This document shows positions 14,312-27,630 of a DNA stretch of 30,108 nt, piece after piece; positions within the stretch are counted from its first letter, which is position 1, and the number at the start of each line of letters is the position of its first letter. Origin of the DNA: Candidatus Methylomirabilota bacterium (lineage in GTDB: Bacteria; Methylomirabilota; Methylomirabilia; Rokubacteriales; CSP1-6); assembly GCA_046733575.1 (NCBI GenBank), contig JBKPPN010000218.1, forward strand, positions 1 through 30,108, written 5' to 3'. Under the pieces are notes generated by a model. That model had not been told where the DNA came from. It ran no database searches and saw only the letters and a list, made by a program, of their open reading frames with translations. The translations under genes and the position numbers were made by a program.

Positions 14312-15139
14312 ATGACACCGGCGTGGCGGCTGCTCGTCACGGAGGCGACCGACGGCGCCACGAACATGGCGATCGACGAGGCGCTGTGGCGCGGCCGGCG
14401 CGCCGGGACGTCACCGCCCACGCTGCGCTTCTTCGCCTGGGATCCTCCCACCGTGTCGCTCGGCTACGGCCAGCGTCTCGACGACCACGTCGACGTCCCC
14501 GCGTGCGCACACCTGGGCGTCGGCCTCGTGCGGCGTCCGACGGGCGGCAGCGCGATCTACCACGACGGTCCCGAGCGTGAGCTGACCTACAGCGTGGCCG
14601 CCACCGCGGATGATCTGGGCGTCGGCGACGATCTCCTCCTCACGTACGAGTGGATCGGGCGTGCGCTCCTGCGCGGGCTGCGCGCGCTCGGCGCCGACGC
14701 CGAGCTGATGGCGGCGCGCCGGCCCGAGGGTCTCTCACCGGCGTTCTGCTTCGCGCGCACGGCAACGTGGGAGCTCGAAGTGGCGGGACGCAAGATCGCG
14801 GGCAGCGCGCAGCGCCGCCAGGGCCGATCGTTCCTGCAGCACGGCGCCGTGCTGCTGGGCGTCGACGAGCCGCGGCTGCGCGTCCTGTTTCCTCGCACGC
14901 GCGATCCCCTCGCCACGCTGACCACGCTCGAGGCCGCGCTCGGACACCGGCCGACGTTCGACCAGGTGGCCGCCGCGCTCGGCGCCGCGTTCGAGACGGA
15001 GCACGGGCTCACGCTGACCCCCGGTGGGCTGTCCGTCGACGAGGTCGAGGCGATGGAGCGTCTCGTGCGGGACAAGTACGCGACCCCGGAGTGGACCCAC
15101 CGGGGCGCGGCGCCGCGGCCCGTCCGCTCCGCCTCGTGA
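14312..15139 (+). CDS. lipM: Lipoate-protein ligase family, LipM-type octanoyltransferase (GcvH modification)
   Basis: NMAIDEAL, RRPTGGSAIYH, AFCF..T..WEL (catalytic Cys position of LipM), RKIAGSAQ and LQHG; directly follows gcv. Confidence 0.75.
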   Translation: MTPAWRLLVTEATDGATNMAIDEALWRGRRAGTSPPTLRFFAWDPPTVSLGYGQRLDDHVDVPACAHLGVGLVRRPTGGSAIYHDGPERELTYSVAATADDLGVGDDLLLTYEWIGRALLRGLRALGADAELMAARRPEGLSPAFCFARTATWELEVAGRKIAGSAQRRQGRSFLQHGAVLLGVDEPRLRVLFPRTRDPLATLTTLEAALGHRPTFDQVAAALGAAFETEHGLTLTPGGLSVDEVEAMERLVRDKYATPEWTHRGAAPRPVRSAS

Positions 15140-15579
15140 GCGCGCGCGAGTATCCCGACGCGCCGCGCGTCGGCGTGGGCGCCGTCGTGCTCAGCAGGGA
15201 CCGCGTGCTCCTCGTGCGGCGCGGGGGCCAGCCGTCGTCGGGAAAGTGGAGCCTGCCCGGGGGCGGGCTCGAGCTCGGCGAGACGACGGTCGAGGGCATC
15301 CAGCGCGAGCTCACCGAGGAGTGCGGCCTGCGCGTGCGCGTGGCGGGGCTCGCCGGCGTGCTGGACCGCGTCGTCCGCGACCCCGAGGGACGCGTGCGTT
15401 ACCACTGGGTGCTCGTGGACTTTCTCGCGTATCCCGAATCGGAGGAGATCTGCGCCGGCAGCGACGCCGCGGAGGCGCGCTGGGTGCCGATCACGGAGGT
15501 TTCCACTCTCGACGTGACGGACGGGCTCCTGGACATGATCGAGCGGGCCGTCGCGCTAGCCGGAGGATCCCGCCCATGA
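15136..15579 (+). CDS. NUDIX hydrolase (ADP-ribose pyrophosphatase-like)
   Basis: GTGA overlap. Complete Nudix box G-GLELG-E-TTVEGIQ-RELTEECGL. Confidence 0.9.
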   Translation: MSAREYPDAPRVGVGAVVLSRDRVLLVRRGGQPSSGKWSLPGGGLELGETTVEGIQRELTEECGLRVRVAGLAGVLDRVVRDPEGRVRYHWVLVDFLAYPESEEICAGSDAAEARWVPITEVSTLDVTDGLLDMIERAVALAGGSRP

Positions 15580-17078
15580 AGGTCGCCGTCGTCAACACCG
15601 CTCCCGTCGCCGTGAAGGCCGACGCGCTCGTGCTGGGCGCCGAGAGCGACGACACCCGGAAGTCGAGCAGCGCGCTCGCGGCCGTCGACCGTCACCTCGG
15701 CGGCCAGATCCGCGCCATCCTGGACGCCGAGAAGTTCGCCGCGAAATCCGGGCAGGTGACGTACGTGCACACGGCGGGCAAGCTGCCCGCCGATCGAGTG
15801 GTGGTGGTGGGCCTCGGCGCGCGTCGCGACACCACGGCCGAGGTCATACGGCGCGCCTCCGCGGTCGGGCTCCGGCGTGCGCGCGATCTCGGCGCGCGCA
15901 CGGTCGCGGTCGACCTGCTCGGCCACCGGCTGACGCCCGAGCAGCGCGCGCACGCCGTCGTCGAGGGCGCCATCCTGGGCGGGTACACCTTCGACCGCTA
16001 CAAGAAGGAGAAGGCCGACAAGGTCGTGGAGACCCTGACCGTGCTGTCGGGGGAGCCACGGGCCAGCCGGGAGGTGAGCCGCGGCGCGCAGACGGGTGAG
16101 ATCTTCGGCGACGCGACGGTGTTCGCGCGCGATCTCGTGAACGCGCCCGCCAACGACGTCCATCCCACGTATCTGGCGCGCGTGGCGTCCGAGGTGGCGC
16201 GGGACGGCGCACTGGGCGTCACGATCCTGGATCGCGCGGAGTGCAAGAAGCTCGGGATGGGCGCCTTCCTCGGCGTCGCCGCGGGCAGCGAGCAGCCGCC
16301 GAAGTTCATCCACCTGACGTACACGCCGAAGGGCAAGGCGAGGAAGCGCGTCGTGGTCATCGGCAAGGGCATCACGTTCGACTCCGGCGGTCTCGACCTG
16401 AAGCCGGCCGACGGCATGCTGCGCATGAAGAACGACATGTCGGGCGCGGCGGCCGTGCTCGGCATCATGCGCGCGCTGCCCAGGCTGGGCGCCGACGTGG
16501 AAGTCCACGGGCTGATCGCGGCCACCGAGAACATGCCGTCCGGCTCCGCCATCCGTCCCGGCGACGTGTTGCGCGCCATGAACGGCACCACCATCGAGAT
16601 CGGCAACACGGACGCGGAAGGCCGGCTGACGCTGGCCGACGCGATGTCCTACGCGGTGAGCCGGATCGAGCCCGACGAGATGATCGACATGGCGACGCTG
16701 ACGGGCGCGTGCGTGGTCGCGCTCGGTCCGCTCTGCTCGGGACTCTTCGCGAACAACCAGACGCTCGCCAACGGCTTGATCGACGCGGCGGGGCGGGCGG
16801 GCGAGCGGGTGTGGCAGCTGCCCCTCATCGACGAGTACCGCGACGGACTGAAGAGCGACGTGGCCGACCTCAACAATGTCGGGCCGCGCGGCGGCGGCGC
16901 CATCACCGCCGGGCTGTTCCTCCGGGAGTTCGCGGCGGGCAAGCCGTGGGCGCACCTCGACATCGCGGGCCCCGCCTACGTCGACAAGGACGGGCCGCTC
17001 GGCGGTCGAGGTGGGACCGGCGTCGGCGTGCGCACGCTGCTGACCTATCTCACCAGCCGGCCCGGCGGCCGCGCCTGA
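15576..17078 (+). CDS. pepA: Leucyl aminopeptidase (M17)
   Basis: ATGA overlap. Contains GKGITFDSGG, MKNDMSGAA, NTDAEGRL and WAHLDIAG. Confidence 0.95.
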   Translation: MKVAVVNTAPVAVKADALVLGAESDDTRKSSSALAAVDRHLGGQIRAILDAEKFAAKSGQVTYVHTAGKLPADRVVVVGLGARRDTTAEVIRRASAVGLRRARDLGARTVAVDLLGHRLTPEQRAHAVVEGAILGGYTFDRYKKEKADKVVETLTVLSGEPRASREVSRGAQTGEIFGDATVFARDLVNAPANDVHPTYLARVASEVARDGALGVTILDRAECKKLGMGAFLGVAAGSEQPPKFIHLTYTPKGKARKRVVVIGKGITFDSGGLDLKPADGMLRMKNDMSGAAAVLGIMRALPRLGADVEVHGLIAATENMPSGSAIRPGDVLRAMNGTTIEIGNTDAEGRLTLADAMSYAVSRIEPDEMIDMATLTGACVVALGPLCSGLFANNQTLANGLIDAAGRAGERVWQLPLIDEYRDGLKSDVADLNNVGPRGGGAITAGLFLREFAAGKPWAHLDIAGPAYVDKDGPLGGRGGTGVGVRTLLTYLTSRPGGRA

Positions 17079-19526: not shown

Positions 19527-19558
19527 GCGATACTCGCGCGATGCCCGCGGCGATTCTA
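19526..19558. promoter_or_regulatory. Candidate face-to-face divergent -10 elements
   Basis: Plus strand: TGC-GATACT (19526-19534), 6 nt before ATG 19541. Minus strand: TAGAAT (19558-19553), upstream of ATG 19526. Confidence 0.35.
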
Positions 19559-20710
19559 TCCCGGGGACCGTTCATGCGGGCCACGGTCACCAACTTCTTC
19601 TTCATCGCCAGCCTCAACGGGTTCGTGCTGCTGCCGCTGCACATTCACGCCCAGGGCGGTACCGACGTCGACGTCGGCATCGTGATGGGGATCTACAGCG
19701 CGGTGGGGATCGTCGCACAGCCCCTCGTGGGGCCGTGGGTCGACGCGGTCGGCCGGCGGCCCTTCATGCTGTGCGGCGTCGCGCTAACCGTCGCGTCCGC
19801 GGCGCTCGCCGTCGTGCTGGACACGATCCCGATGCTCGCCCTCGTGCGCGCGCTCCAGGGCGTCGCGTTCTCGATGTTCTTCGTGGCCGCGTTCGCCTAC
19901 GTGCTGGACCTGGTCCCTCCCGCCGAGCGCGGGTGGGCGCTCGGCATCTACGGTGTCTCCGGATTCGTGTCCACCGCGCTGGCCCCGCTCGTGGGCGAGC
20001 TGGTCATCCGGCGCTGGGGCTTTCGCGCGCTGGCGGCCGGCTCGGGACTGATCGCGCTCGTGGCCGCCGTGCTCGTGTGGCAGCTGCGACCCGCGCGCCG
20101 TGTGACGGTGCCCGCGACGGGTCCAGGCTGGACGCGCAGCGCGCTCACCGACGTCCTGCAGCGGTCGATGGCGGTCACGATCTTCTTCGGGCTGGGGACG
20201 GGGACGATCTTCGCCTTCCTCCCGACGTTCGCGGAGAGCCTGGGCGTCAGGACGCTGGCGATCTTCTACACCGCGTACGCGGTGGCCGCCATGGCGGTGC
20301 GCGTCTTCGGCGGGACGCTCATCGACACGCGCGGTCGTCGCGCCGTCATCGTGCCCGCGATGCTCGTGCAGACGACCGCCACGGGCGTCCTCGCCGCGCT
20401 GGGCGCGCTCGCCACGCGCGACGTGCGGCTGCCCGCCATCCCGGCGCTGTTCGTGGCCGGCGTCCTGGCGGGTGGCGCGCACGGCTTCCTCTATCCGGGT
20501 CTCGCCGCGCTGGTGACGGACCGCACGCCGGAGAGTCGCCGCGGCGCCGTGGTGGGCACGTTCAGCGCGGTGATGCTGGTGGGACAATCCGCGGGCGCGT
20601 TCGCCTTCGGCTACATCGCGCACGCCGCGGGATACTTCGTCATGTGGGCGTCGCTGACCGCGCTGCTCCTCGTCGGACTCCTGCTGAGCCTCCGCCTGCC
20701 CGGACGCTGA
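19541..20710 (+). CDS. MFS transporter
   Basis: About 12 hydrophobic segments, with MFS motif A-like GPWVDAVGRR and GTLIDTRGRR. Start is 19541 or 19574. Confidence 0.9.
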   Translation: MPAAILSRGPFMRATVTNFFFIASLNGFVLLPLHIHAQGGTDVDVGIVMGIYSAVGIVAQPLVGPWVDAVGRRPFMLCGVALTVASAALAVVLDTIPMLALVRALQGVAFSMFFVAAFAYVLDLVPPAERGWALGIYGVSGFVSTALAPLVGELVIRRWGFRALAAGSGLIALVAAVLVWQLRPARRVTVPATGPGWTRSALTDVLQRSMAVTIFFGLGTGTIFAFLPTFAESLGVRTLAIFYTAYAVAAMAVRVFGGTLIDTRGRRAVIVPAMLVQTTATGVLAALGALATRDVRLPAIPALFVAGVLAGGAHGFLYPGLAALVTDRTPESRRGAVVGTFSAVMLVGQSAGAFAFGYIAHAAGYFVMWASLTALLLVGLLLSLRLPGR

Positions 20711-20727: not shown

Positions 20728-20802
20728 ATGCTCACGCGCGCCGCGATGCCGATGCGCCGCGCCGCCGCGCGCCCGCCTCGTTGGCGCGCCGCCCATGCCT
20801 GA
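20728..20802 (+). CDS. Putative leaderless upstream ORF (24 aa) overlapping the AAA start
   Basis: MLTRAAMPMRRAAARPPRWRAAHA*. Its TGA (20800-20802) overlaps the AAA start as ATGCCTGA, and the AAA ATG has no SD. Confidence 0.4.
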   Translation: MLTRAAMPMRRAAARPPRWRAAHA

Positions 20803-21736
20803 GCGCGAGCCCGAGGAACTGCAGTGGGCCATCCAGCGGCGGCTGGAAGACGTCTTCGCGAAGCTGGGAGAGAAGTTCGGCGACCTCACCGGCCGTGTCG
20901 AGATGCAGATGCGTCCCACCGTCACGTTCGACGAGGTGGGCGGGCTGCACCAGGCCAAGGAGCTGCTGCGCGGGTTCGCGCGCGCCCTCACGGACCCGGA
21001 GCTCTACCGGAAGTGGGGCATCGCGCCACCGAAGGGCGTGCTGCTCTACGGTCCCCCGGGCACCGGCAAGGCCATGCTGGCGCGGGCGCTCGCCACCGCG
21101 TCCGGCGCGATCTTCTATCACCTGAAGCTCATGAACCTGACCTCGAAGTTCGGCGCCAACACCGGCGAGCTGCTGCAGGAGATCTTCCGCATCGTGGTGG
21201 GCGAGGGGCGCGCGGTGCTCTTCCTCGACGAGGCGGAGGCGCTGTCGCTGGAGCACCTGCTGCCACCGCCCCAGGCGCGCGAGGCGAGCGCGCGGCTGGT
21301 CGCGTCGCTGTGTGAGAAGCTCGACGCGATCGCGCCCGAGGCGCGCGTGCTCGTGGTCGGCGCGACGAGCCGGACGGATGCGATCGACCCGGGGCTCGTG
21401 GCGCCTGGCCGTCTCGACCACCTGATCGAGATCGCGCTGCCCGACGCGTCCGCGCAGCAGGAGATCCTCGAAGGCCTGCGCACGCGGGCCGAGCGCAACG
21501 CCGAGCGCACGCTCTTCGACACCATCGACTACCGCAAGGTCCTGCCCGTCATGGGCGGCATGAGCGGCGCGGATCTGTCGGAGATCGTGCGGCGCGCGCT
21601 CGAGACGAAGGTGCACCGCGCGGCCGCGGACGGTGACGCCCCGCTCGTGACCACGGACGATCTCCTCGTCACCGTCGACGCGTACAAGCGCGTGCGAAGC
21701 GTGGTGGAGAAGATCCGCTACGGTCAGTACCTCTGA
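20795..21736 (+). CDS. Minimal classical-clade AAA ATPase (ARC/PAN/Cdc48-like module) with C-terminal GQYL proteasome-docking motif
   Basis: PTVTFDEVGGL, PPKGVLLYGPPGTGKA, LFLDE, SRH-like ATSRTDAIDPGLVAPGRLD and MSGADL. Ends RYGQYL-stop (21722-21736). Confidence 0.85.
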   Translation: MPEREPEELQWAIQRRLEDVFAKLGEKFGDLTGRVEMQMRPTVTFDEVGGLHQAKELLRGFARALTDPELYRKWGIAPPKGVLLYGPPGTGKAMLARALATASGAIFYHLKLMNLTSKFGANTGELLQEIFRIVVGEGRAVLFLDEAEALSLEHLLPPPQAREASARLVASLCEKLDAIAPEARVLVVGATSRTDAIDPGLVAPGRLDHLIEIALPDASAQQEILEGLRTRAERNAERTLFDTIDYRKVLPVMGGMSGADLSEIVRRALETKVHRAAADGDAPLVTTDDLLVTVDAYKRVRSVVEKIRYGQYL

Positions 21737-21747
21737 GGCGGCGGGGC

Positions 21748-22185
21748 ATGGCCGCACCGACGAACGACGACGCCGGCGTGACGACGACGGAGGTCCGCGT
21801 CCGCTACAAGGACACGGATTGCATGAAGGTCGCGTACTACGGCAACTACCTGACGTACTTTGAGGTCGGACGCGTCGAGTACCTCCGCCAGCGCGGGCTG
21901 CCGATGTCGGAGGTCGATCGCCGCGTTCACATGCCGGTGGTGGAGGCGACCGTCCGGTACGTGAAGCCGGCGCGCCTCGACGATCGGCTGCTCGTGCGGT
22001 GCTGGATCAGCGAGAAGAAGCGCGCGAGCTTCCGCTTCAGCTACGACATCCGTGACGAGGGCGACGAGCGCATCGCGCATGGCCACACGCTGCACGCGTG
22101 TCAGGACCCGGCCACGGGCAAGCTCGTCGGGATTCCGGCGTGGCTCGCCGGCGTCATGGTCGTCGCCGCCGTCCCGACGTCCTGA
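21748..22185 (+). CDS. YbgC/FadM-family acyl-CoA thioesterase
   Basis: VRVRYKDTD.M.VAYYGNYLTYFEVGR and Y.KPARLDD. Confidence 0.85.
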   Translation: MAAPTNDDAGVTTTEVRVRYKDTDCMKVAYYGNYLTYFEVGRVEYLRQRGLPMSEVDRRVHMPVVEATVRYVKPARLDDRLLVRCWISEKKRASFRFSYDIRDEGDERIAHGHTLHACQDPATGKLVGIPAWLAGVMVVAAVPTS

Positions 22186-22245: not shown

Positions 22246-22485
22246 ATGCGAGAAGAGGCGCTCCGATCGACCATCCGTCAGAAGCTCCTCGACGGCCACT
22301 TGCCGCAGGCGAAGTGCCAGATCACGTGGTTCGGGCCGGGGAGTCGGCAGACGTGTGTCGCGTGCGATCGCACGATCGAGCCCAGCCACGTGGAGTGCGA
22401 GTGCGAGCATCCCGACGGCGGCGTGCTGCGGTTCCACCGGGAGTGCTTCGCGTTGTGGGACGAGATTCGCCAGGCGCTCGGCTGA
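22246..22485 (+). CDS. Small Cys/His-rich putative zinc-finger protein (79 aa)
   Basis: C37-x2-C40 and H64-x2-C67, plus C24, C51 and C53. Has its own promoter and fills the intergenic gap. Confidence 0.75.
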   Translation: MREEALRSTIRQKLLDGHLPQAKCQITWFGPGSRQTCVACDRTIEPSHVECECEHPDGGVLRFHRECFALWDEIRQALG

Positions 22486-22550: not shown

Positions 22551-23540
22551 ATGATCGAAGTCGAAGGCCTCACCAAGCAGTACGGGCCCATCACCGCGAT
22601 CCGCGACGTCTCCTTCTCCGTCGCGCCGGGCGAGATCGTGGGGTTCCTCGGTCCCAACGGCGCCGGGAAGTCCACGACCATGCGGATCCTCTCCTGCTTC
22701 ATGCCCGCGAGCGCGGGGACGGCCAAGGTCGCGGGGTACGACGTGTTCCGCGAGTCGATGGAAGTCCGCCGTCGCATCGGCTACCTGCCCGAGAACGTTC
22801 CCCTCTACACCGAGATGCGCGTGGCCGCGTATCTCGACTTCGTGGCCGAGATCAAGGGCGTCTCCCGGGCCACGCGTCGGCGGCGCGTCGCGGACGCCAT
22901 GGACCGGTGCCTGATCGCCGACGTGCAGAACCGCCTCATCGGCAAGCTGTCGAAGGGCTATCGCCAGCGCGTGGGGCTGGCGCAGGCGATCATCAGCGAT
23001 CCGGCCGTGCTGATCCTCGACGAGCCCACCATCGGACTGGATCCCCGTCAGATCGCCGAGATCCGGGCGCTCATCAAGTCGCTCGCCGGCGAGCACACCG
23101 TCATCCTGTCCACGCACATCCTCCCCGAGGTGTCGATGGTGTGCAGCAGCGTGATCATCATCAACAAGGGCGCCATCGTGGCCCAGGGCCCCATCGACAC
23201 GCTGGTGGAGCAGTTCTTCCCGACCGCGCGCGTCCACGTGCAGCTCGACGGCCCCGCGGCCACGGTGCGGTCGGCGCTGCAGAAGATCTCCGGCGTGGTC
23301 ACCGTGCACGACGCCGCGCCCACGGGTGAGCCCGCTCCCGGCTTCGTGGTGGAGTCCGCCCGCGGACGCGACGTGCGCGGTGAGGTCTTCCGTCTCGCCG
23401 CCGAGCAGCGCTGGCCGCTCCTGGAACTCCGCCGCGTCGGCATGACGCTGGAAGAGGTGTTCATGCGCATCGTGGCGGGCGAGGAGACGGACGGCGCGGG
23501 CGTCGCGGGCGACATCGCGCCGCGTGAGGTGACGGCGTGA
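22551..23540 (+). CDS. ABC transporter ATP-binding protein (GldA-like)
   Basis: GPNGAGKST, signature LSKGYRQR, ILDEP and LSTH; has a C-terminal accessory domain. Confidence 0.93.
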   Translation: MIEVEGLTKQYGPITAIRDVSFSVAPGEIVGFLGPNGAGKSTTMRILSCFMPASAGTAKVAGYDVFRESMEVRRRIGYLPENVPLYTEMRVAAYLDFVAEIKGVSRATRRRRVADAMDRCLIADVQNRLIGKLSKGYRQRVGLAQAIISDPAVLILDEPTIGLDPRQIAEIRALIKSLAGEHTVILSTHILPEVSMVCSSVIIINKGAIVAQGPIDTLVEQFFPTARVHVQLDGPAATVRSALQKISGVVTVHDAAPTGEPAPGFVVESARGRDVRGEVFRLAAEQRWPLLELRRVGMTLEEVFMRIVAGEETDGAGVAGDIAPREVTA

Positions 23541-24307
23541 AGGTCTGGCCGATCTTCAAGAAGGAGATCCGCCTTTACTTCACGTCGCCCGTGGCGTACG
23601 TCGTGCTCGCCGTCTTCCTGGTGATCGCGGGGTACTTCTTCTACTCGATCTTCAACTTCTTCGCCATGGCCTCGATGCAGGCGGCCATGAACCCGCAGAT
23701 GGCGCGCGACCTCACCGTCACCGAGAGCGTGCTGCGGCCGCTCTTCTCCAACATCAGCGTGATCCTGCTCCTGCTCATCCCGCTCCTCACCATGCGGCTC
23801 TTCGCGGAGGAGCGCCGGTCGGGGACCATCGAGTTGCTCCTGACCTATCCCGTGCGCGACGGCGCCGTCCTCATCGGCAAGTACCTGGCCGCCCTCGTCC
23901 TCTACGCCATCATGCTGGGCTTCACGCTGCTGTATCCCGCACTGCTCGCCTACTTCGGGGCGCGGCCGGAGTGGGGACCGCTGCTCACCGGGTATGTCGG
24001 TCTGCTGCTCATGGGCGCGACGTTCCTGTCCGTGGGGCTGTTCGCGTCCTCGCTCACCGAGAACCAGATCGTGGCGTCGCTCATCACGTTCGGCGTCCTG
24101 CTCATCTTCTGGGTCCTGGGATGGAGCGCCGAGGCGGTGGGAGGGTCGTGGGGGAAGGTGCTCTCTGATCTGTCCCTGCTCGAGCACTACGACACGTTCG
24201 CCAAGGGCATTCTGGACACCAAGGACGTCATCTACTACGTCAACTTCACCGTCCTTGCGCTGTTCTTGACGCTGCGCTCGCTGGAGGCGCGGCGATGGAA
24301 GGGTTGA
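23537..24307 (+). CDS. ABC-2 permease (GldF-like)
   Basis: KKEIRLYFTSP.AY, TMRLFAEERRSGTIELLLTYPV, GKYLA and SSLTENQIVA; 6 TM-like segments. Confidence 0.9.
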   Translation: MKVWPIFKKEIRLYFTSPVAYVVLAVFLVIAGYFFYSIFNFFAMASMQAAMNPQMARDLTVTESVLRPLFSNISVILLLLIPLLTMRLFAEERRSGTIELLLTYPVRDGAVLIGKYLAALVLYAIMLGFTLLYPALLAYFGARPEWGPLLTGYVGLLLMGATFLSVGLFASSLTENQIVASLITFGVLLIFWVLGWSAEAVGGSWGKVLSDLSLLEHYDTFAKGILDTKDVIYYVNFTVLALFLTLRSLEARRWKG

Positions 24308-24308
24308 G

Positions 24309-25859
24309 ATGAGGCGGGTGGGCGACTGGATGAGCTACGCGGGGCTGCTGTTTCTGGCCCTGACCGTGCTGGCGACGGTGCGGCCGGCGTGGTGGCCGGA
24401 GCGGCTCGACCGCTTCCGCGTCGCCTTCTTCGTCGTCGGCGTGGTGCTCGTGCTCGCCTCCTTCCTGTTCCGTGTGCGCGACCTGCGTGGCACGCTCGGT
24501 CATCGCAGCACACGCTACGGCCTCAACACCGCGGTGATGGTGCTGCTCGTGCTCGGCGTCATCGGGTTCGTGGAGGCCTTCTCGTACCGGCACAACGCCC
24601 GCGTCGACCTCACCGAGAACCGCCGCAACAGTCTCTCGTCGCAGACGATCCAGCTCCTGGGCAGCCTGAAGGACGACGTCACGGCGACGGGCTTCTTCCG
24701 GCCCGACCAGCCGGGCAAGCGCGTGGCCGAGGACCTCTTCAAGCAGTACGCGCGCTACGCGAACGGAAAGTTCACCTGGAAGACGGTCGATCCCGACCGC
24801 GAGCCGGCCCTCGCGCGCCGCTACGGGATCGAGTCGTACGGCACGGTCGTCCTCGAGACGAAGGCCCGCTCGGAGAAGGTGCTGGATGCCGAGGAGGAGA
24901 AGCTCACCAACGGGCTCGTGAAGCTCACGCGCGAGGGCAAGCGCGTGGTGTACGTGCTGCAGGGCCACGGCGAGCACGATCTCAACAACACCGACCAGCC
25001 CGGCTTCAGCGTGGCGAAGGGCGAAGTCGAGAAGGCGAACTACGACGTCAAGCCGATCGTCCTCGCCCAGCAGGAGAAGATCCCGGACGACGCCGCCGTC
25101 GTGATCGTCCCCGGGCCACGCACGGACCTGCTACCCCCCGAGATCGCGGCCATCGAGGGCTACATCGGCCGGGGCGGCAAACTCCTCGTCATGCTCGACT
25201 CGACGTTCACGGGCAAGGTCCGCGAGGCGGCGCTCCGGAAGACGCTGGCCGACAAGTACGGTATCGACGCGGGCGACAACCTCGTGATCGAGGTCAATCC
25301 GGTGGCCCGGCTCTTCGGCGCCACCGCGGACATGCCGATCGTGCAGCAGTACGAGTCGCACCCCATCACGCGGGACATGCGGGGGATCATGACCATCTTC
25401 CCGCTCAGCCGCACGGTCGACCCCGCCAAGACGCCGCCCGCCGGCGTGAACGTCCTCTCGCTGGTGAAGACCAGCACGCAGAGCTGGGCGGAGACGAACC
25501 GCGCCGCGCTCGAGAAGGGGCAGATCAACCCCGACCCCGAGGACCCCAAGGGGCCGCTCTCCCTCGCCGTCGTGGCGACGAAGGACAAGGCGCGCATCGT
25601 CGTGTACGGCACGTCGGAGGTCGCGTCCAACCAGTTCCTGAACTTCCAGGGCAACCGCGACTTCTTCATGAACACCGTCAGCTGGCTCGCCGAGGAAGAG
25701 GGGCAGATCGCCATCCGACCGAAGGACACCAAGCAGACGCCCGTGTTCCTCAGCGCGCAGCAGGCGCAGGCATCCTTCCTCCTGCCCGTCGTCCTGCTGC
25801 CCGCCATCCCGATCGTCGGCGGCATCATCGCGGTCGTCCGTCGCCGCTCCGCGAACTAA
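24309..25859 (+). CDS. GldG-family ABC auxiliary component
   Basis: N-terminal TMs, RVDLTENRRNSLS.QT, VY.L.GHGE, GN.DFFMN.VSWL and a C-terminal TM ending in RRR. Confidence 0.85.
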   Translation: MRRVGDWMSYAGLLFLALTVLATVRPAWWPERLDRFRVAFFVVGVVLVLASFLFRVRDLRGTLGHRSTRYGLNTAVMVLLVLGVIGFVEAFSYRHNARVDLTENRRNSLSSQTIQLLGSLKDDVTATGFFRPDQPGKRVAEDLFKQYARYANGKFTWKTVDPDREPALARRYGIESYGTVVLETKARSEKVLDAEEEKLTNGLVKLTREGKRVVYVLQGHGEHDLNNTDQPGFSVAKGEVEKANYDVKPIVLAQQEKIPDDAAVVIVPGPRTDLLPPEIAAIEGYIGRGGKLLVMLDSTFTGKVREAALRKTLADKYGIDAGDNLVIEVNPVARLFGATADMPIVQQYESHPITRDMRGIMTIFPLSRTVDPAKTPPAGVNVLSLVKTSTQSWAETNRAALEKGQINPDPEDPKGPLSLAVVATKDKARIVVYGTSEVASNQFLNFQGNRDFFMNTVSWLAEEEGQIAIRPKDTKQTPVFLSAQQAQASFLLPVVLLPAIPIVGGIIAVVRRRSAN

Positions 25860-25866
25860 CCGCTTC

Positions 25867-27630
25867 ATGCGCTGGCAGACGACGGCCGTCCTCGCCATCA
25901 TTCTCATCGCCATCGGCGCCTTCTACTACGTCTACGAGATTCGCCAGGGCCCAGCGCGCGAGCAGCAAGAGGCGCGCAAGGGGCGCGTCTTCACCGCGGA
26001 GCCCGCCGACGTGACCGAGATGCAGCTCAAGCGGCCGTCCGACACCGTGAACCTCAAGCGTGAGGGCACGGGCTGGCAGATGCTGGCGCCCGTGAAGACG
26101 TCTGGCGACCGTGCGACCGTGGACGATACGGTCAGCACCGTGGTGACCGCGAAGATGGACCGAGAGGTGGCCAACGCGCCGGCGTCCCTCGCCGACTTTG
26201 GTCTCGACAAGCCGGCCGCCGAGTTGAATCTCACCCTGAAGGACGGCAAGCACCTGGCCCTGCTGCTCGGGGCGAAGAACCCGACCGGCGTCTGGGTCTA
26301 CGCCAAGGAGAAGGACAAGCCGGCGGTCTTCGTGCTCGGCGAGAGCGTGCTGCGCGACACCACGCGCCCGGTGGCCGACTATCGCGACAAGACCGTCCTC
26401 GCGTTCGACCGGAAGGACGTGACGGGCCTGGATGTCGTGCTGCCGTCCGAGACCATCGCGCTCGCCCAGGACGGGGGGAAGTGGACGCTGACGCGTCCCG
26501 CCACCTACCCCGCGGACGGCGATATCGTGAGCGACGTCCTCGACAAGCTGGCCAGCGCCAAGGTGCGCGAGTTCGTGGCCGAGGCCCCGGCGTCGCTCGA
26601 GCCGTTCGGCCTGACGCGTCCCGTGCGCGTCGACGTGCAGACGGGGAAGGACAAGGACCGCGCCACCAAGTCGCTCCTGCTCGGTCGCGTGGACGAGACC
26701 AAGAAGGGTGTCTACGCCATGCGCCCCGGCGAGCCGAGCGTGCTGTTGCTCGCCGAGGAAGTGTCGACGGCCCTGCCCCGCACGGTGGCCGCCCTCCGGA
26801 ACAAGAACCTCATCGAGGTCGCGGCGGACAAGGTGACGACAGTCGATCTCCAGAGCCCGAAGGGACAGGTCACGCTGGTCCGTGACAACGACCGCTGGAA
26901 GATCACCGCGCCCGAGCCGCTCCCCGCGGATCAGGTGGAAGCGGGCGGCGTCCTCTTCAAGCTGCGCGAGCTGCGCGCGCAGGCGTTTCTCACCGACGAC
27001 GCCTCCGGCATCGCCAAGTACCTGACCAGGCCCGAGGTGAAGGTCACCGTGACGTACAAGGAAGGGGCGCCCGCCGTGGTGCTGCTCGCTCCGTCACCGG
27101 AGCAACGCGGCGGACGGCCGACCGCGTACGCCGCCGTGGAGGGCCGCGGGCCCGTGATCCTGGTCGACGGTCGCTCCCTCACGGACCTCTCGCGATCGGC
27201 GACCGACCTGCGCGACCGCGCGCTCTTCGGCGACCTGCAGCCGCGCGACGCCAAGCGGGTGCGGATCACGAGCGAGGGCAAGACCGTCGTCCTCGAGCGG
27301 AGCGGCGATCGCGACTGGAAGATGCTCGAGCCCTCGAAGGGCAGTGCCAACGGCAGCAAGGTCGAGGATCTGCTCTACACGCTGCGCGGTCTCAAGTGGA
27401 CGGAGATCGTCTCGCCGCAGGGCGTCGACGCCGCCCGCTACGGTGTCGACGCGCCGACCATGACCGTCACGCTGCTGAAGTCCGACGGCGCGGAGCTCGC
27501 CTCCCTGGCCGTCGGCAAGCGAGAGAATGGCCGCGCGTACGTGCGGGCAGGTAAGGGCCCGGCGATCGAGGCGGTGGACGTCAAGCAGCTCGGCGACGCG
27601 CCGAAGATCCCGGACGACTTCAAGGGGTGA
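25867..27630 (+). CDS. DUF4340-domain protein with about four tandem repeats
   Basis: N-terminal TM anchor. Repeated W.M..P / (F,Y)GL..P / LLLG / (D,L)R.K units; typical partner of GldAFG-like loci. Confidence 0.75.
   Translation: MRWQTTAVLAIILIAIGAFYYVYEIRQGPAREQQEARKGRVFTAEPADVTEMQLKRPSDTVNLKREGTGWQMLAPVKTSGDRATVDDTVSTVVTAKMDREVANAPASLADFGLDKPAAELNLTLKDGKHLALLLGAKNPTGVWVYAKEKDKPAVFVLGESVLRDTTRPVADYRDKTVLAFDRKDVTGLDVVLPSETIALAQDGGKWTLTRPATYPADGDIVSDVLDKLASAKVREFVAEAPASLEPFGLTRPVRVDVQTGKDKDRATKSLLLGRVDETKKGVYAMRPGEPSVLLLAEEVSTALPRTVAALRNKNLIEVAADKVTTVDLQSPKGQVTLVRDNDRWKITAPEPLPADQVEAGGVLFKLRELRAQAFLTDDASGIAKYLTRPEVKVTVTYKEGAPAVVLLAPSPEQRGGRPTAYAAVEGRGPVILVDGRSLTDLSRSATDLRDRALFGDLQPRDAKRVRITSEGKTVVLERSGDRDWKMLEPSKGSANGSKVEDLLYTLRGLKWTEIVSPQGVDAARYGVDAPTMTVTLLKSDGAELASLAVGKRENGRAYVRAGKGPAIEAVDVKQLGDAPKIPDDFKG

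Follow-up and report, generated by a model that had tools for sequence, protein, structure and literature searches.

Does a minimal AAA protein of an uncultured bacterium dock on the 20S proteasome? The question is raised by the C-terminus of a protein encoded in the window, i.e. the whole stretch of DNA that was analysed, which comprises 30,108 nt (positions 1 to 30,108 of the forward strand) of contig JBKPPN010000218.1 in assembly GCA_046733575.1 of a Candidatus Methylomirabilota bacterium. The product, hereafter called the AAA-GQYL protein, is 313 aa long and ends with VVEKIRYGQYL, directly followed by the stop codon. In Mpa and in PafE/Bpa, GQYL is the motif for docking on the 20S particle and for opening its gate, and it is experimentally required (PMC12288473, PMC6017811). 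The bacterial 20S partners listed in reviews up to 2025 are Mpa/ARC, Bpa/PafE and Cpa, all of them studied in Actinobacteria (PMC12288473, PMC6017811). Cpa carries neither a GQYL nor a hydrophobic–tyrosine–any residue (HbYX) motif, and it does not need its last five residues in order to bind (PMC6017811). In the literature searched, GQYL was encountered only in Mpa/ARC and Bpa/PafE, Cpa being a partner without the motif. The initial annotation of the window read the protein as a distinct proteasome regulator, and the sequence comparisons presented here support this reading. The AAA-GQYL protein is probably a proteasome cap or regulator of a kind not yet described, and docking of its tail on the 20S particle is considered likely.

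The proteasome system of the host genome

The host genome is a metagenome-assembled genome (MAG) of 4.2 Mb in 518 contigs, 81.6% complete and with 3.8% contamination; the window corresponds to its contig C218. Whether this genome encodes a 20S proteasome could not be told from the window in the initial annotation. The genome does encode one. The genes prcB (with the processing site HG/TT), prcA and that of a 451-aa PafA-type ligase are all located on contig C298. The PrcA protein scores 253 bits against PrcA of Rhodococcus and 227 bits against PrcA of M. tuberculosis. Two Mpa/ARC genes, at C502:4396-6228 (+) and C517:488-~2100 (-), reach 746 and 726 bits against a cut-off of 505, and the genome's own Mpa carries the OB and coiled-coil domains (PF17758, PF16450). 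The start of dop follows mpa on C502, and pup is found on C245. A Bpa/PafE homologue ending in GPGQYL is encoded at C18:6659-7126 (-) (PF10759, E 6e-49). As the initial annotation had stated, none of these genes lies near the AAA-GQYL gene: no match to pup, prc, paf, dop or mpa was found on C218 besides the AAA-GQYL gene itself.

Two further observations concern this system. The bpa gene on C18 places an ATP-independent proteasome activator in a non-actinobacterial phylum as well. The two Mpa copies are 77% identical at the protein and 83% at the DNA level, have different flanks and both end with TGQYL; a pair is also present in genome G253, from another phylum. The two copies of the host are probably genuine paralogues, with strain mixing in the MAG as the alternative.

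The GQYL end itself is rare. Among 39,049 stop-terminated six-frame open reading frames (ORFs) of at least 50 aa, four end with GQYL, as against 0.006 expected from the position-specific composition (Poisson P ~6e-11). The GQYL end of the AAA-GQYL protein is therefore not a product of chance. The four proteins are the two Mpa copies (TGQYL), Bpa (PGQYL) and the AAA-GQYL protein (YGQYL). Every other GQYL end in the genome thus belongs to a type of protein for which this motif is experimentally required for 20S docking.

Conservation of the C-terminal tail

A homologue search over 5.8 billion proteins returned 1,872 matches. The best 120 of these are 74-96% identical to the protein of the window, nearly all of them have a length of 313 aa, and every one ends with KIRYGQYL. 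In an exhaustive search of representative sequences, the family collapses into very few clusters at 50% identity. The homologues bear the names Rokubacteria, Methylomirabilota and NC10, in agreement with the non-actinobacterial lineage assumed at the outset. More distant members keep the same end: EKIRYGQYL closes P0123 (72% identical), P0141 (45%) and P0158 (40%), and the orthologues from f10, one of the families into which the Methylomirabilota genomes were divided (see below), are 49% identical and end with VVEKIRYGQYL.

Conservation of GQYL among homologues, proposed as a check in the initial annotation, is evident at all of these distances. GQYL is present in 158/158 tabulated members, down to 40% identity, and EKIRYGQYL in 153/158. 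In a divergent set seeded with P0158, 59 of 60 full-length proteins have GQYL, and the single outlier ends with GAYL. Across eight divergent members with a mean column identity of 64%, the C-terminal 9-mer EKIRYGQYL forms the longest invariant block. The column entropy of the tail (0.031 bits) is close to that of the P-loop (0.027 bits), and the next segment, the Arg-finger region (0.355 bits), is tenfold less constrained. The 27-nt stretch encoding the tail exists in 31 distinct versions across 39 loci; each of its codons varies synonymously, and all three stop codons occur. Because of this synonymous variation, the conservation must act on the protein rather than on the DNA.

Architecture and relationships

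The AAA-GQYL gene has the codon bias of a coding sequence, with a GC content of 0.92 at the third and 0.47 at the second codon position in a genome of 70% GC, and the overlapping spurious frames differ from it. Its product contains a single Pfam AAA domain (PF00004, E 2e-24), only one Walker A motif and no other substantial match; neither an OB nor a coiled-coil domain was detected with Pfam. The best NCBIfam match is PAN with 170 bits (169.7 and 164 for NF003069/TIGR01242), followed by Cdc48 (156), FtsH (113) and Mpa (108.5). None of these scores reaches the curated cut-offs of 500-800 bits (PAN 500, CDC48 803, Mpa TIGR03689 504.75).

An AlphaFold2 model based on a family alignment of 76 sequences has a mean predicted local distance difference test score (pLDDT) of 91.2 and a predicted template modelling score (pTM) of 0.87. 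In this model, an N-terminal helix is followed by a short strand (residues 35-38) and by the AAA alpha/beta core. The lid consists of four helices, and a free tail (309-313) comes after the last of them (287-308). The initial annotation was right about the 313 aa, the single classical AAA module and the KIRYGQYL end. Its N-terminal part needs correction: the extension ahead of the AAA module has about 40 residues as described, but only about 25 of them are predicted to be helical. The positions conserved in this extension throughout the family are R15, R16, D19, L24 and G29. The nearest solved folds in Foldseek are the PAN nucleotidase domain (3H4M/3WHK, TM 0.91, 30% identity), then p97 D1 and FtsH; the best sequence alignments in the PDB are with domains of VAT and p97, at 136 bits per domain.

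A maximum-likelihood tree was calculated from 54 AAA domains, which represent the family, its paralogues, Mpa and FtsH of the host genome, archaeal PAN-type proteins and the D1 and D2 domains of Cdc48-type proteins from archaea and bacteria. The AAA-GQYL family is monophyletic (100/98) and sister to a group of paralogues of 470-561 aa (100/99). Together they form a clade that does not include Mpa, PAN, FtsH or either of the Cdc48 domains and that is carried by a long branch (0.77). This placement and the scores below the family cut-offs rule out a truncated Mpa or PAN. The sister paralogues in the tree have an unrelated N-terminal extension and no GQYL, and the placement implies that it was a different AAA scaffold that gained the GQYL tail.

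The sister paralogues P0172, P0212, P0411, P0414, P0422, P0425 and P0427 (loci L147-L149) have 403-561 aa with a long unrelated N-terminal extension and a canonical motor. Common to them is a conserved [ST]IGF (or LGF) motif at a distance of 2-5 residues from the C-terminus, roughly where the AAA-GQYL family has IRY. Docking on ClpP via this motif was considered and dropped: ClpP is absent from their gene contexts, which contain FtsZ and sugar-nucleotide genes and look unrelated.

The protein fits none of the known activator architectures, as the initial annotation had argued. With Mpa/ARC, it shares the classical-clade AAA module, the C-terminal GQYL with its penultimate Tyr, and genomes that contain PrcAB, Pup and PafA/Dop. 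However, it lacks the N-terminal coiled coil, the double OB domain and the beta-grasp domain that precedes the Mpa tail. Its AAA module is only 28-32% identical to that of Mpa and belongs to a separate, distant clade. Ahead of GQYL it has a Tyr where Mpa has a Thr, the five residues preceding this Tyr are invariant too, and its motor motifs are degenerate. PAN is the best NCBIfam and structural match, and in the model the tail emerges directly from the four-helix lid, a further likeness to PAN. In contrast to the AAA-GQYL protein, which is bacterial, ends with GQYL and falls outside the PAN clade, PAN is archaeal, carries an OB ring besides its coiled coil, and terminates in HbYX. Bpa/PafE resembles it in the C-terminal GQYL, in the independence of Pup that is presumed for it and in having no unfolding domains, and both may admit loosely folded substrates. 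Bpa, however, is a dodecamer of four-helix bundles without a nucleotide site, and the AAA-GQYL protein has no PF10759 match. The Cdc48/VAT/Cpa group also belongs to the classical AAA proteins, and archaeal Cdc48 docks on the 20S particle by HbYX, whereas the AAA-GQYL protein has one AAA module instead of two and no N domain.

Degeneration of the motor

The motor motifs were read by alignment to VAT and from a clade table, and 121 close homologues were tabulated. The motor is canonical in the sister paralogues without the tail and in the P0141 cluster, with GKT in Walker A, a KWYG or KWYA pore loop, DE in Walker B, Asn at sensor-1 and both Arg fingers; the pore loop of f10 is also of the KWYG/KWYA type. 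In the clade of the window, the pore loop is fixed as KFGA, sensor-1 is Ser and the first Arg finger is replaced by Ala. The P0158 cluster has the pore loop KGPD, Ile at sensor-1 and Lys at the first Arg finger, and the member from genome G287 (a second phylum, see below) has the pore loop RWQD. At the Mg-coordinating position of Walker A, the close homologues have Ser (85), Thr (20), Ala (13, the window included) or Gly (3). Their Walker B is DE in 116/121, the remaining five having AE, ND, DQ or DT. Throughout the family, near-invariance is seen for the Walker A Lys and the second Arg finger. A Walker A of the type GKA was considered as a family trait and rejected, since Ser or Thr is found in 105/121 close homologues and Thr in the basal lineages; the signal is one of relaxed constraint.

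Judged from these alignments, the pore loop, sensor-1 and one Arg finger, in some cases Walker A or B as well, have decayed independently in at least three lineages, that of the window included. The losses in Walker A, Walker B and the pore loop point to relaxed selection on the motor. Nucleotide binding, and hence probably ring assembly, appears to be retained, and it would be hydrolysis-driven threading on which selection has been relaxed.

Proposed mode of action

The conserved function of the AAA-GQYL protein is proposed to be docking on the alpha-ring of PrcAB via YGQYL, by analogy with the use of GQYL in Mpa/ARC and Bpa/PafE. Nucleotide binding by Walker A, with its invariant Lys, and by Walker B, which is mostly intact, would drive the assembly of a hexamer, a ring being expected from the AAA fold. 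The tails would leave directly from the lid, as in PAN/Rpt and unlike the Mpa tail, which is buried behind the beta-grasp domain. They would then insert into the alpha-subunit pockets and open the gate. Lacking both the coiled coil and the OB ring, the protein would not read Pup; because nothing in it can bind Pup, such a ring would be independent of pupylation. In the clade of the window, with KFGA, Ser at sensor-1, one Arg finger lost and here also GKA, it would be a weak translocase at best. It may there open the gate to loosely folded substrates without any need for Pup, or it may compete with Mpa and Bpa, or regulate them, at the two faces of the alpha-ring. The basal lineages with KWYG, Asn and two Arg fingers may still have true unfoldase caps.

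The tail stays constant although several lineages have each seen an independent decay of the motor, which suggests that docking, and not unfolding, is the selected function. On balance, it seems probable that the protein forms a ring which binds nucleotide, has no OB domains, does not recognise Pup and is docked on the 20S particle by its tails, and that in the clade of the window this ring serves as a gate opener or competitor rather than as a strong unfoldase. A more extreme version for the clade of the window is tentative and not favoured here: the nucleotide-binding AAA ring may have lost effective translocation, the positioning of six GQYL tails on the 20S particle being all that it is retained for. 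To our knowledge, no AAA proteasome cap with a dead motor has come to light so far, whatever the domain of life.

Alternatively, the protein could be an active Pup-independent unfoldase cap that hydrolyses ATP and threads substrates into the 20S particle. Its substrates would be picked by an adaptor on the N-terminal helix or by intrinsic degrons, and the motif changes in the clade of the window would be tolerated variants. The near-invariance of the Walker A Lys, the Walker B DE and the second Arg finger fits this possibility, as do the aromatic pore residue (F119), which is kept in 119/121 close homologues, the conserved N-terminal helix and the fully canonical motors of the basal lineages and sister paralogues. 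However, the Mg-coordinating Ser or Thr of Walker A has been replaced by Ala or Gly in 16/121 close homologues, the window among them, and Walker B is broken in 5/121. The pore aromatic residue is gone entirely in the P0158 cluster, and the pore loop of the G287 member is likewise altered. A tightly coupled upstream gene for a BFN-domain protein (25/31 loci) could encode a partner of such a cap, but this protein carries a sequence for secretion or membrane anchoring at its N-terminus, and it is missing in the window, in f10 and in other lineages. An active unfoldase cap is regarded as unlikely.

Co-occurrence with the 20S proteasome

The 20S alpha subunit was scored with TIGR03691 in 251 Methylomirabilota genomes, which were split into families. 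In the whole phylum, the AAA-GQYL protein is present in 205/251 and the 20S alpha subunit in 194/251 genomes. The respective counts are 150/158 and 120/158 in f1, the family of the window, 19/21 and 20/21 in f2, and 16/21 and 17/21 in f7. The protein is less frequent than the 20S alpha subunit in f8 (4/15 and 11/15) and f13 (2/20 and 18/20). Both are missing from f6 (0/2 and 0/2), and f10 has the protein in 6/6 and the 20S alpha subunit in 0/6 genomes. Wherever the AAA-GQYL gene is present, it is single-copy. On shared contigs of G109, G131, G132, G160, G161, G181 and G183, it lies 110-185 kb from prcA.

The joint absence of the 20S proteasome and the AAA-GQYL protein in f6 is real, since both f6 genomes are 100% complete. 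A true absence of the 20S proteasome in f10 was rejected as an assembly artefact: in G041, G043 and G045, fragments of Mpa, PrcB and the Pup ligase are found where contigs end, and hslV, beside hslU, is the other gene with a proteasome fold in these MAGs. In MAGs of Methylomirabilota, the Pup-proteasome locus is regularly broken at contig ends (in the host genome it is spread over the four short contigs C298, C502, C517 and C245; also G041, G043 and G045). These breaks account for false absences of the 20S alpha subunit, i.e. the 0/6 in f10 and the only 120/158 in f1.

Among 301 sampled genomes of a second phylum, 5 have a 20S proteasome and 2 (G251 and G287) the AAA-GQYL protein. The member of G251 (1.9 Mb, 43% GC) ends with EKIRYGQYL, and a 20S alpha gene is located 171 kb away on the same contig. 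The member of G287 (genome size 3.7 Mb; G287:C99:12135-13034, locus L145, 71% GC) ends with ERIRTGQYL. A GTDB-wide scan with the family alignment yielded one true member and was swamped by the generic Walker A pattern. The idea of the initial annotation that the protein would co-occur only with prcAB is borne out by a strong association, but not strictly, G287 having the protein without a detectable 20S proteasome. The converse does not apply either, as the 20S proteasome often occurs without the AAA-GQYL protein, e.g. in f13. The protein has been added, in particular lineages, to a proteasome system that is able to work without it.

Several points weigh against a role as a tail-docked regulator of the 20S proteasome. 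G287, the completeness of which is not reported, has no detectable 20S alpha or beta subunit, Mpa or Pup ligase, and only hslV. The family was not found in 401 sampled Actinomycetota at E <= 1e-45, where the same kind of search recovered 42%-identical members elsewhere. Many 20S-bearing genomes do without the protein, as the counts for f13 and f8 illustrate. The AAA-GQYL gene is never in or beside the Pup-proteasome locus, and its neighbours vary across lineages. At the protein level, the physical binding to the 20S particle is predicted from sequence. The nine invariant residues exceed what Mpa and Bpa need, in which the residues before GQYL vary, so that the tail may carry an extra or a different contact. 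Only about five residues extend past the last predicted helix, which would be short for the alpha-ring pockets unless the helix frays. As for the motor, Ser at sensor-1 and the loss of one Arg finger would lower hydrolysis but need not abolish it, and its weakness is a deduction from motifs.

Alternatively, the tail could have a different job. EKIRYGQYL could serve in ring assembly or autoinhibition, much as certain AAA proteins have C-terminal helices that pack against an adjacent subunit, or in contact with another partner, and its likeness to the known GQYL ends would be coincidental or convergent. This would agree with the invariance of all nine residues, with a gene that is never linked to the proteasome locus, with the occurrence of the protein in G287, which has HslV and no detectable proteasome system, and with its absence from most of the 20S-bearing f13. 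The [ST]IGF motif at the same place in the sister paralogues also suggests that the C-terminus may be a general interaction site. However, a chance GQYL end is very unlikely given the expected number per genome, and the other three GQYL proteins of the host are of types proven to dock on the 20S particle. The tail-less sister group shows that the segment is dispensable for such an AAA ring, and the lack of the tail in these nearest paralogues is counted in favour of docking. In addition, the family is confined to lineages with a Pup proteasome and shows the concordant absence in f6. A different job of the tail is held to be quite improbable. A role as a partner or assembly factor, in mixed rings with Mpa or as a transient cover of the alpha-ring during 20S assembly, would suit the co-occurrence with two Mpa paralogues in the host and the combination of a weak motor with an invariant tail, as expected of a chaperone-like or placeholder function. 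It is held to be highly improbable; for an AAA module so distant from Mpa, mixed rings are unlikely.

Gene neighbourhood

The features of the window are compiled in Table 1. The thioesterase gene downstream is probably co-transcribed with the AAA-GQYL gene; this neighbour is kept only within the family of the window and was left out of the proposed system. In 25/31 loci of the same family, a BFN-domain gene (PF02577/DUF151) lies directly upstream of the AAA-GQYL gene (e.g. L017:906-1487, L026:854-1483, L064:2390-2983), and its product carries an N-terminal signal or anchor sequence. The gene of a major facilitator superfamily (MFS) transporter takes its place in the window and in five other loci. 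The only BFN homologue of the host genome is a 36%-identical paralogue on C395. Other lineages have other neighbours: DUF3568 upstream in f10, hflX and mutS2 in P0288, and GNAT and GntR genes in P0141. A single system of BFN protein, AAA-GQYL protein and thioesterase was considered and rejected because of the signal or anchor sequence and because BFN is absent from the window and from the f10, P0141 and P0158 lineages. As no neighbour is conserved family-wide, the gene context is uninformative on function.

A scan for promoters and terminators gave nothing useful. Window positions 20944-21154 match one 211-nt contig of a rhizosphere metatranscriptome exactly (no mismatch), which is too weak for a claim of transcription. 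A large depth spike at 21015-21115 is due to cross-mapping of Walker A regions from other organisms.

Table 1. Positions of genes and of segments of the AAA-GQYL protein in the window
Feature	Position	Strand	Remarks
M17 leucyl aminopeptidase gene	15024-17078		
MFS transporter gene	19541-20710		Upstream of the AAA-GQYL gene, 84-nt gap
AAA-GQYL gene	20795..21736	+	ATG start, TGA stop at 21734-21736; 313 aa; homologues of equal length
N-terminal helix, residues 4-28	20804..20878	+	AlphaFold2 model; occupies the place of the coiled coil and OB domains of PAN/Mpa
AAA alpha/beta core, residues 82-214	21038..21436	+	PF00004; best Foldseek match is the PAN AAA domain
Walker A GPPGTGKA, residues 86-93	21050..21073	+	K92 invariant; Ala at position 93 replaces the Mg-coordinating Ser/Thr
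Pore loop 1 KFGA, residues 118-121	21146..21157	+	Derived from canonical KWYG
Walker B D145-E146	21227..21232	+	Intact in the window; alignment of homologues
Sensor-1 Ser192	21368..21370	+	Asn in the classical clade; alignment to VAT, clade table
Arg-finger segment A203-P-G-R206	21401..21412	+	First Arg finger lost (Ala), second kept
Four-helix lid (small AAA subdomain), residues 218-308	21446..21718	+	AlphaFold2 model; ends in the long helix 287-308
C-terminal 9-mer EKIRYGQYL	21707..21733	+	YGQYL (309-313) protrudes past the last helix; putative docking tail for the 20S alpha-ring
4HBT/YbgC-type thioesterase gene	21748..22185	+	11 nt after the stop of the AAA-GQYL gene
79-aa ORF	22246-22485	+	Coding-type GC content at third codon positions; Cys/His pairs (CVACD...HVECECEH); between the thioesterase and ABC genes; no Pfam match
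GldA/F/G-like ABC-2 transporter set	22551-27630	+	ATPase, permease, ABC_transp_aux, DUF4340

Implications for bacterial proteasomes

According to the literature searched, the occurrence of bacterial proteasomes is sporadic outside Actinobacteria, e.g. in Nitrospirae. Nothing relevant was found there on Rokubacteria or Methylomirabilota in connection with a proteasome or Pup, nor was a publication found on the AAA-GQYL family. A known docking motif and a known fold are combined here in an architecture and a lineage undescribed for proteasome partners. The family belongs to an abundant uncultured soil phylum, the proteasome system of which is undescribed in the same literature.

Mpa docks poorly on the 20S particle in vitro, as its GQYL is recessed behind the beta-grasp domain, and this has been a long-standing practical problem. 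A minimal ring with the tail directly after the lid could be a simpler, tractable model for structural work on the engagement of a bacterial AAA ring with the 20S particle. If effective translocation has been lost in the clade of the window, the ring would be a nucleotide-sensing gate opener or plug that tunes the access of Mpa and Bpa to the bacterial proteasome. The family offers a natural experiment in which the docking tail is frozen and the motor decays independently. If the proposed role is true, it would represent a further class of 20S partner of new architecture, with a single AAA module and an exposed GQYL tail but without an OB ring.

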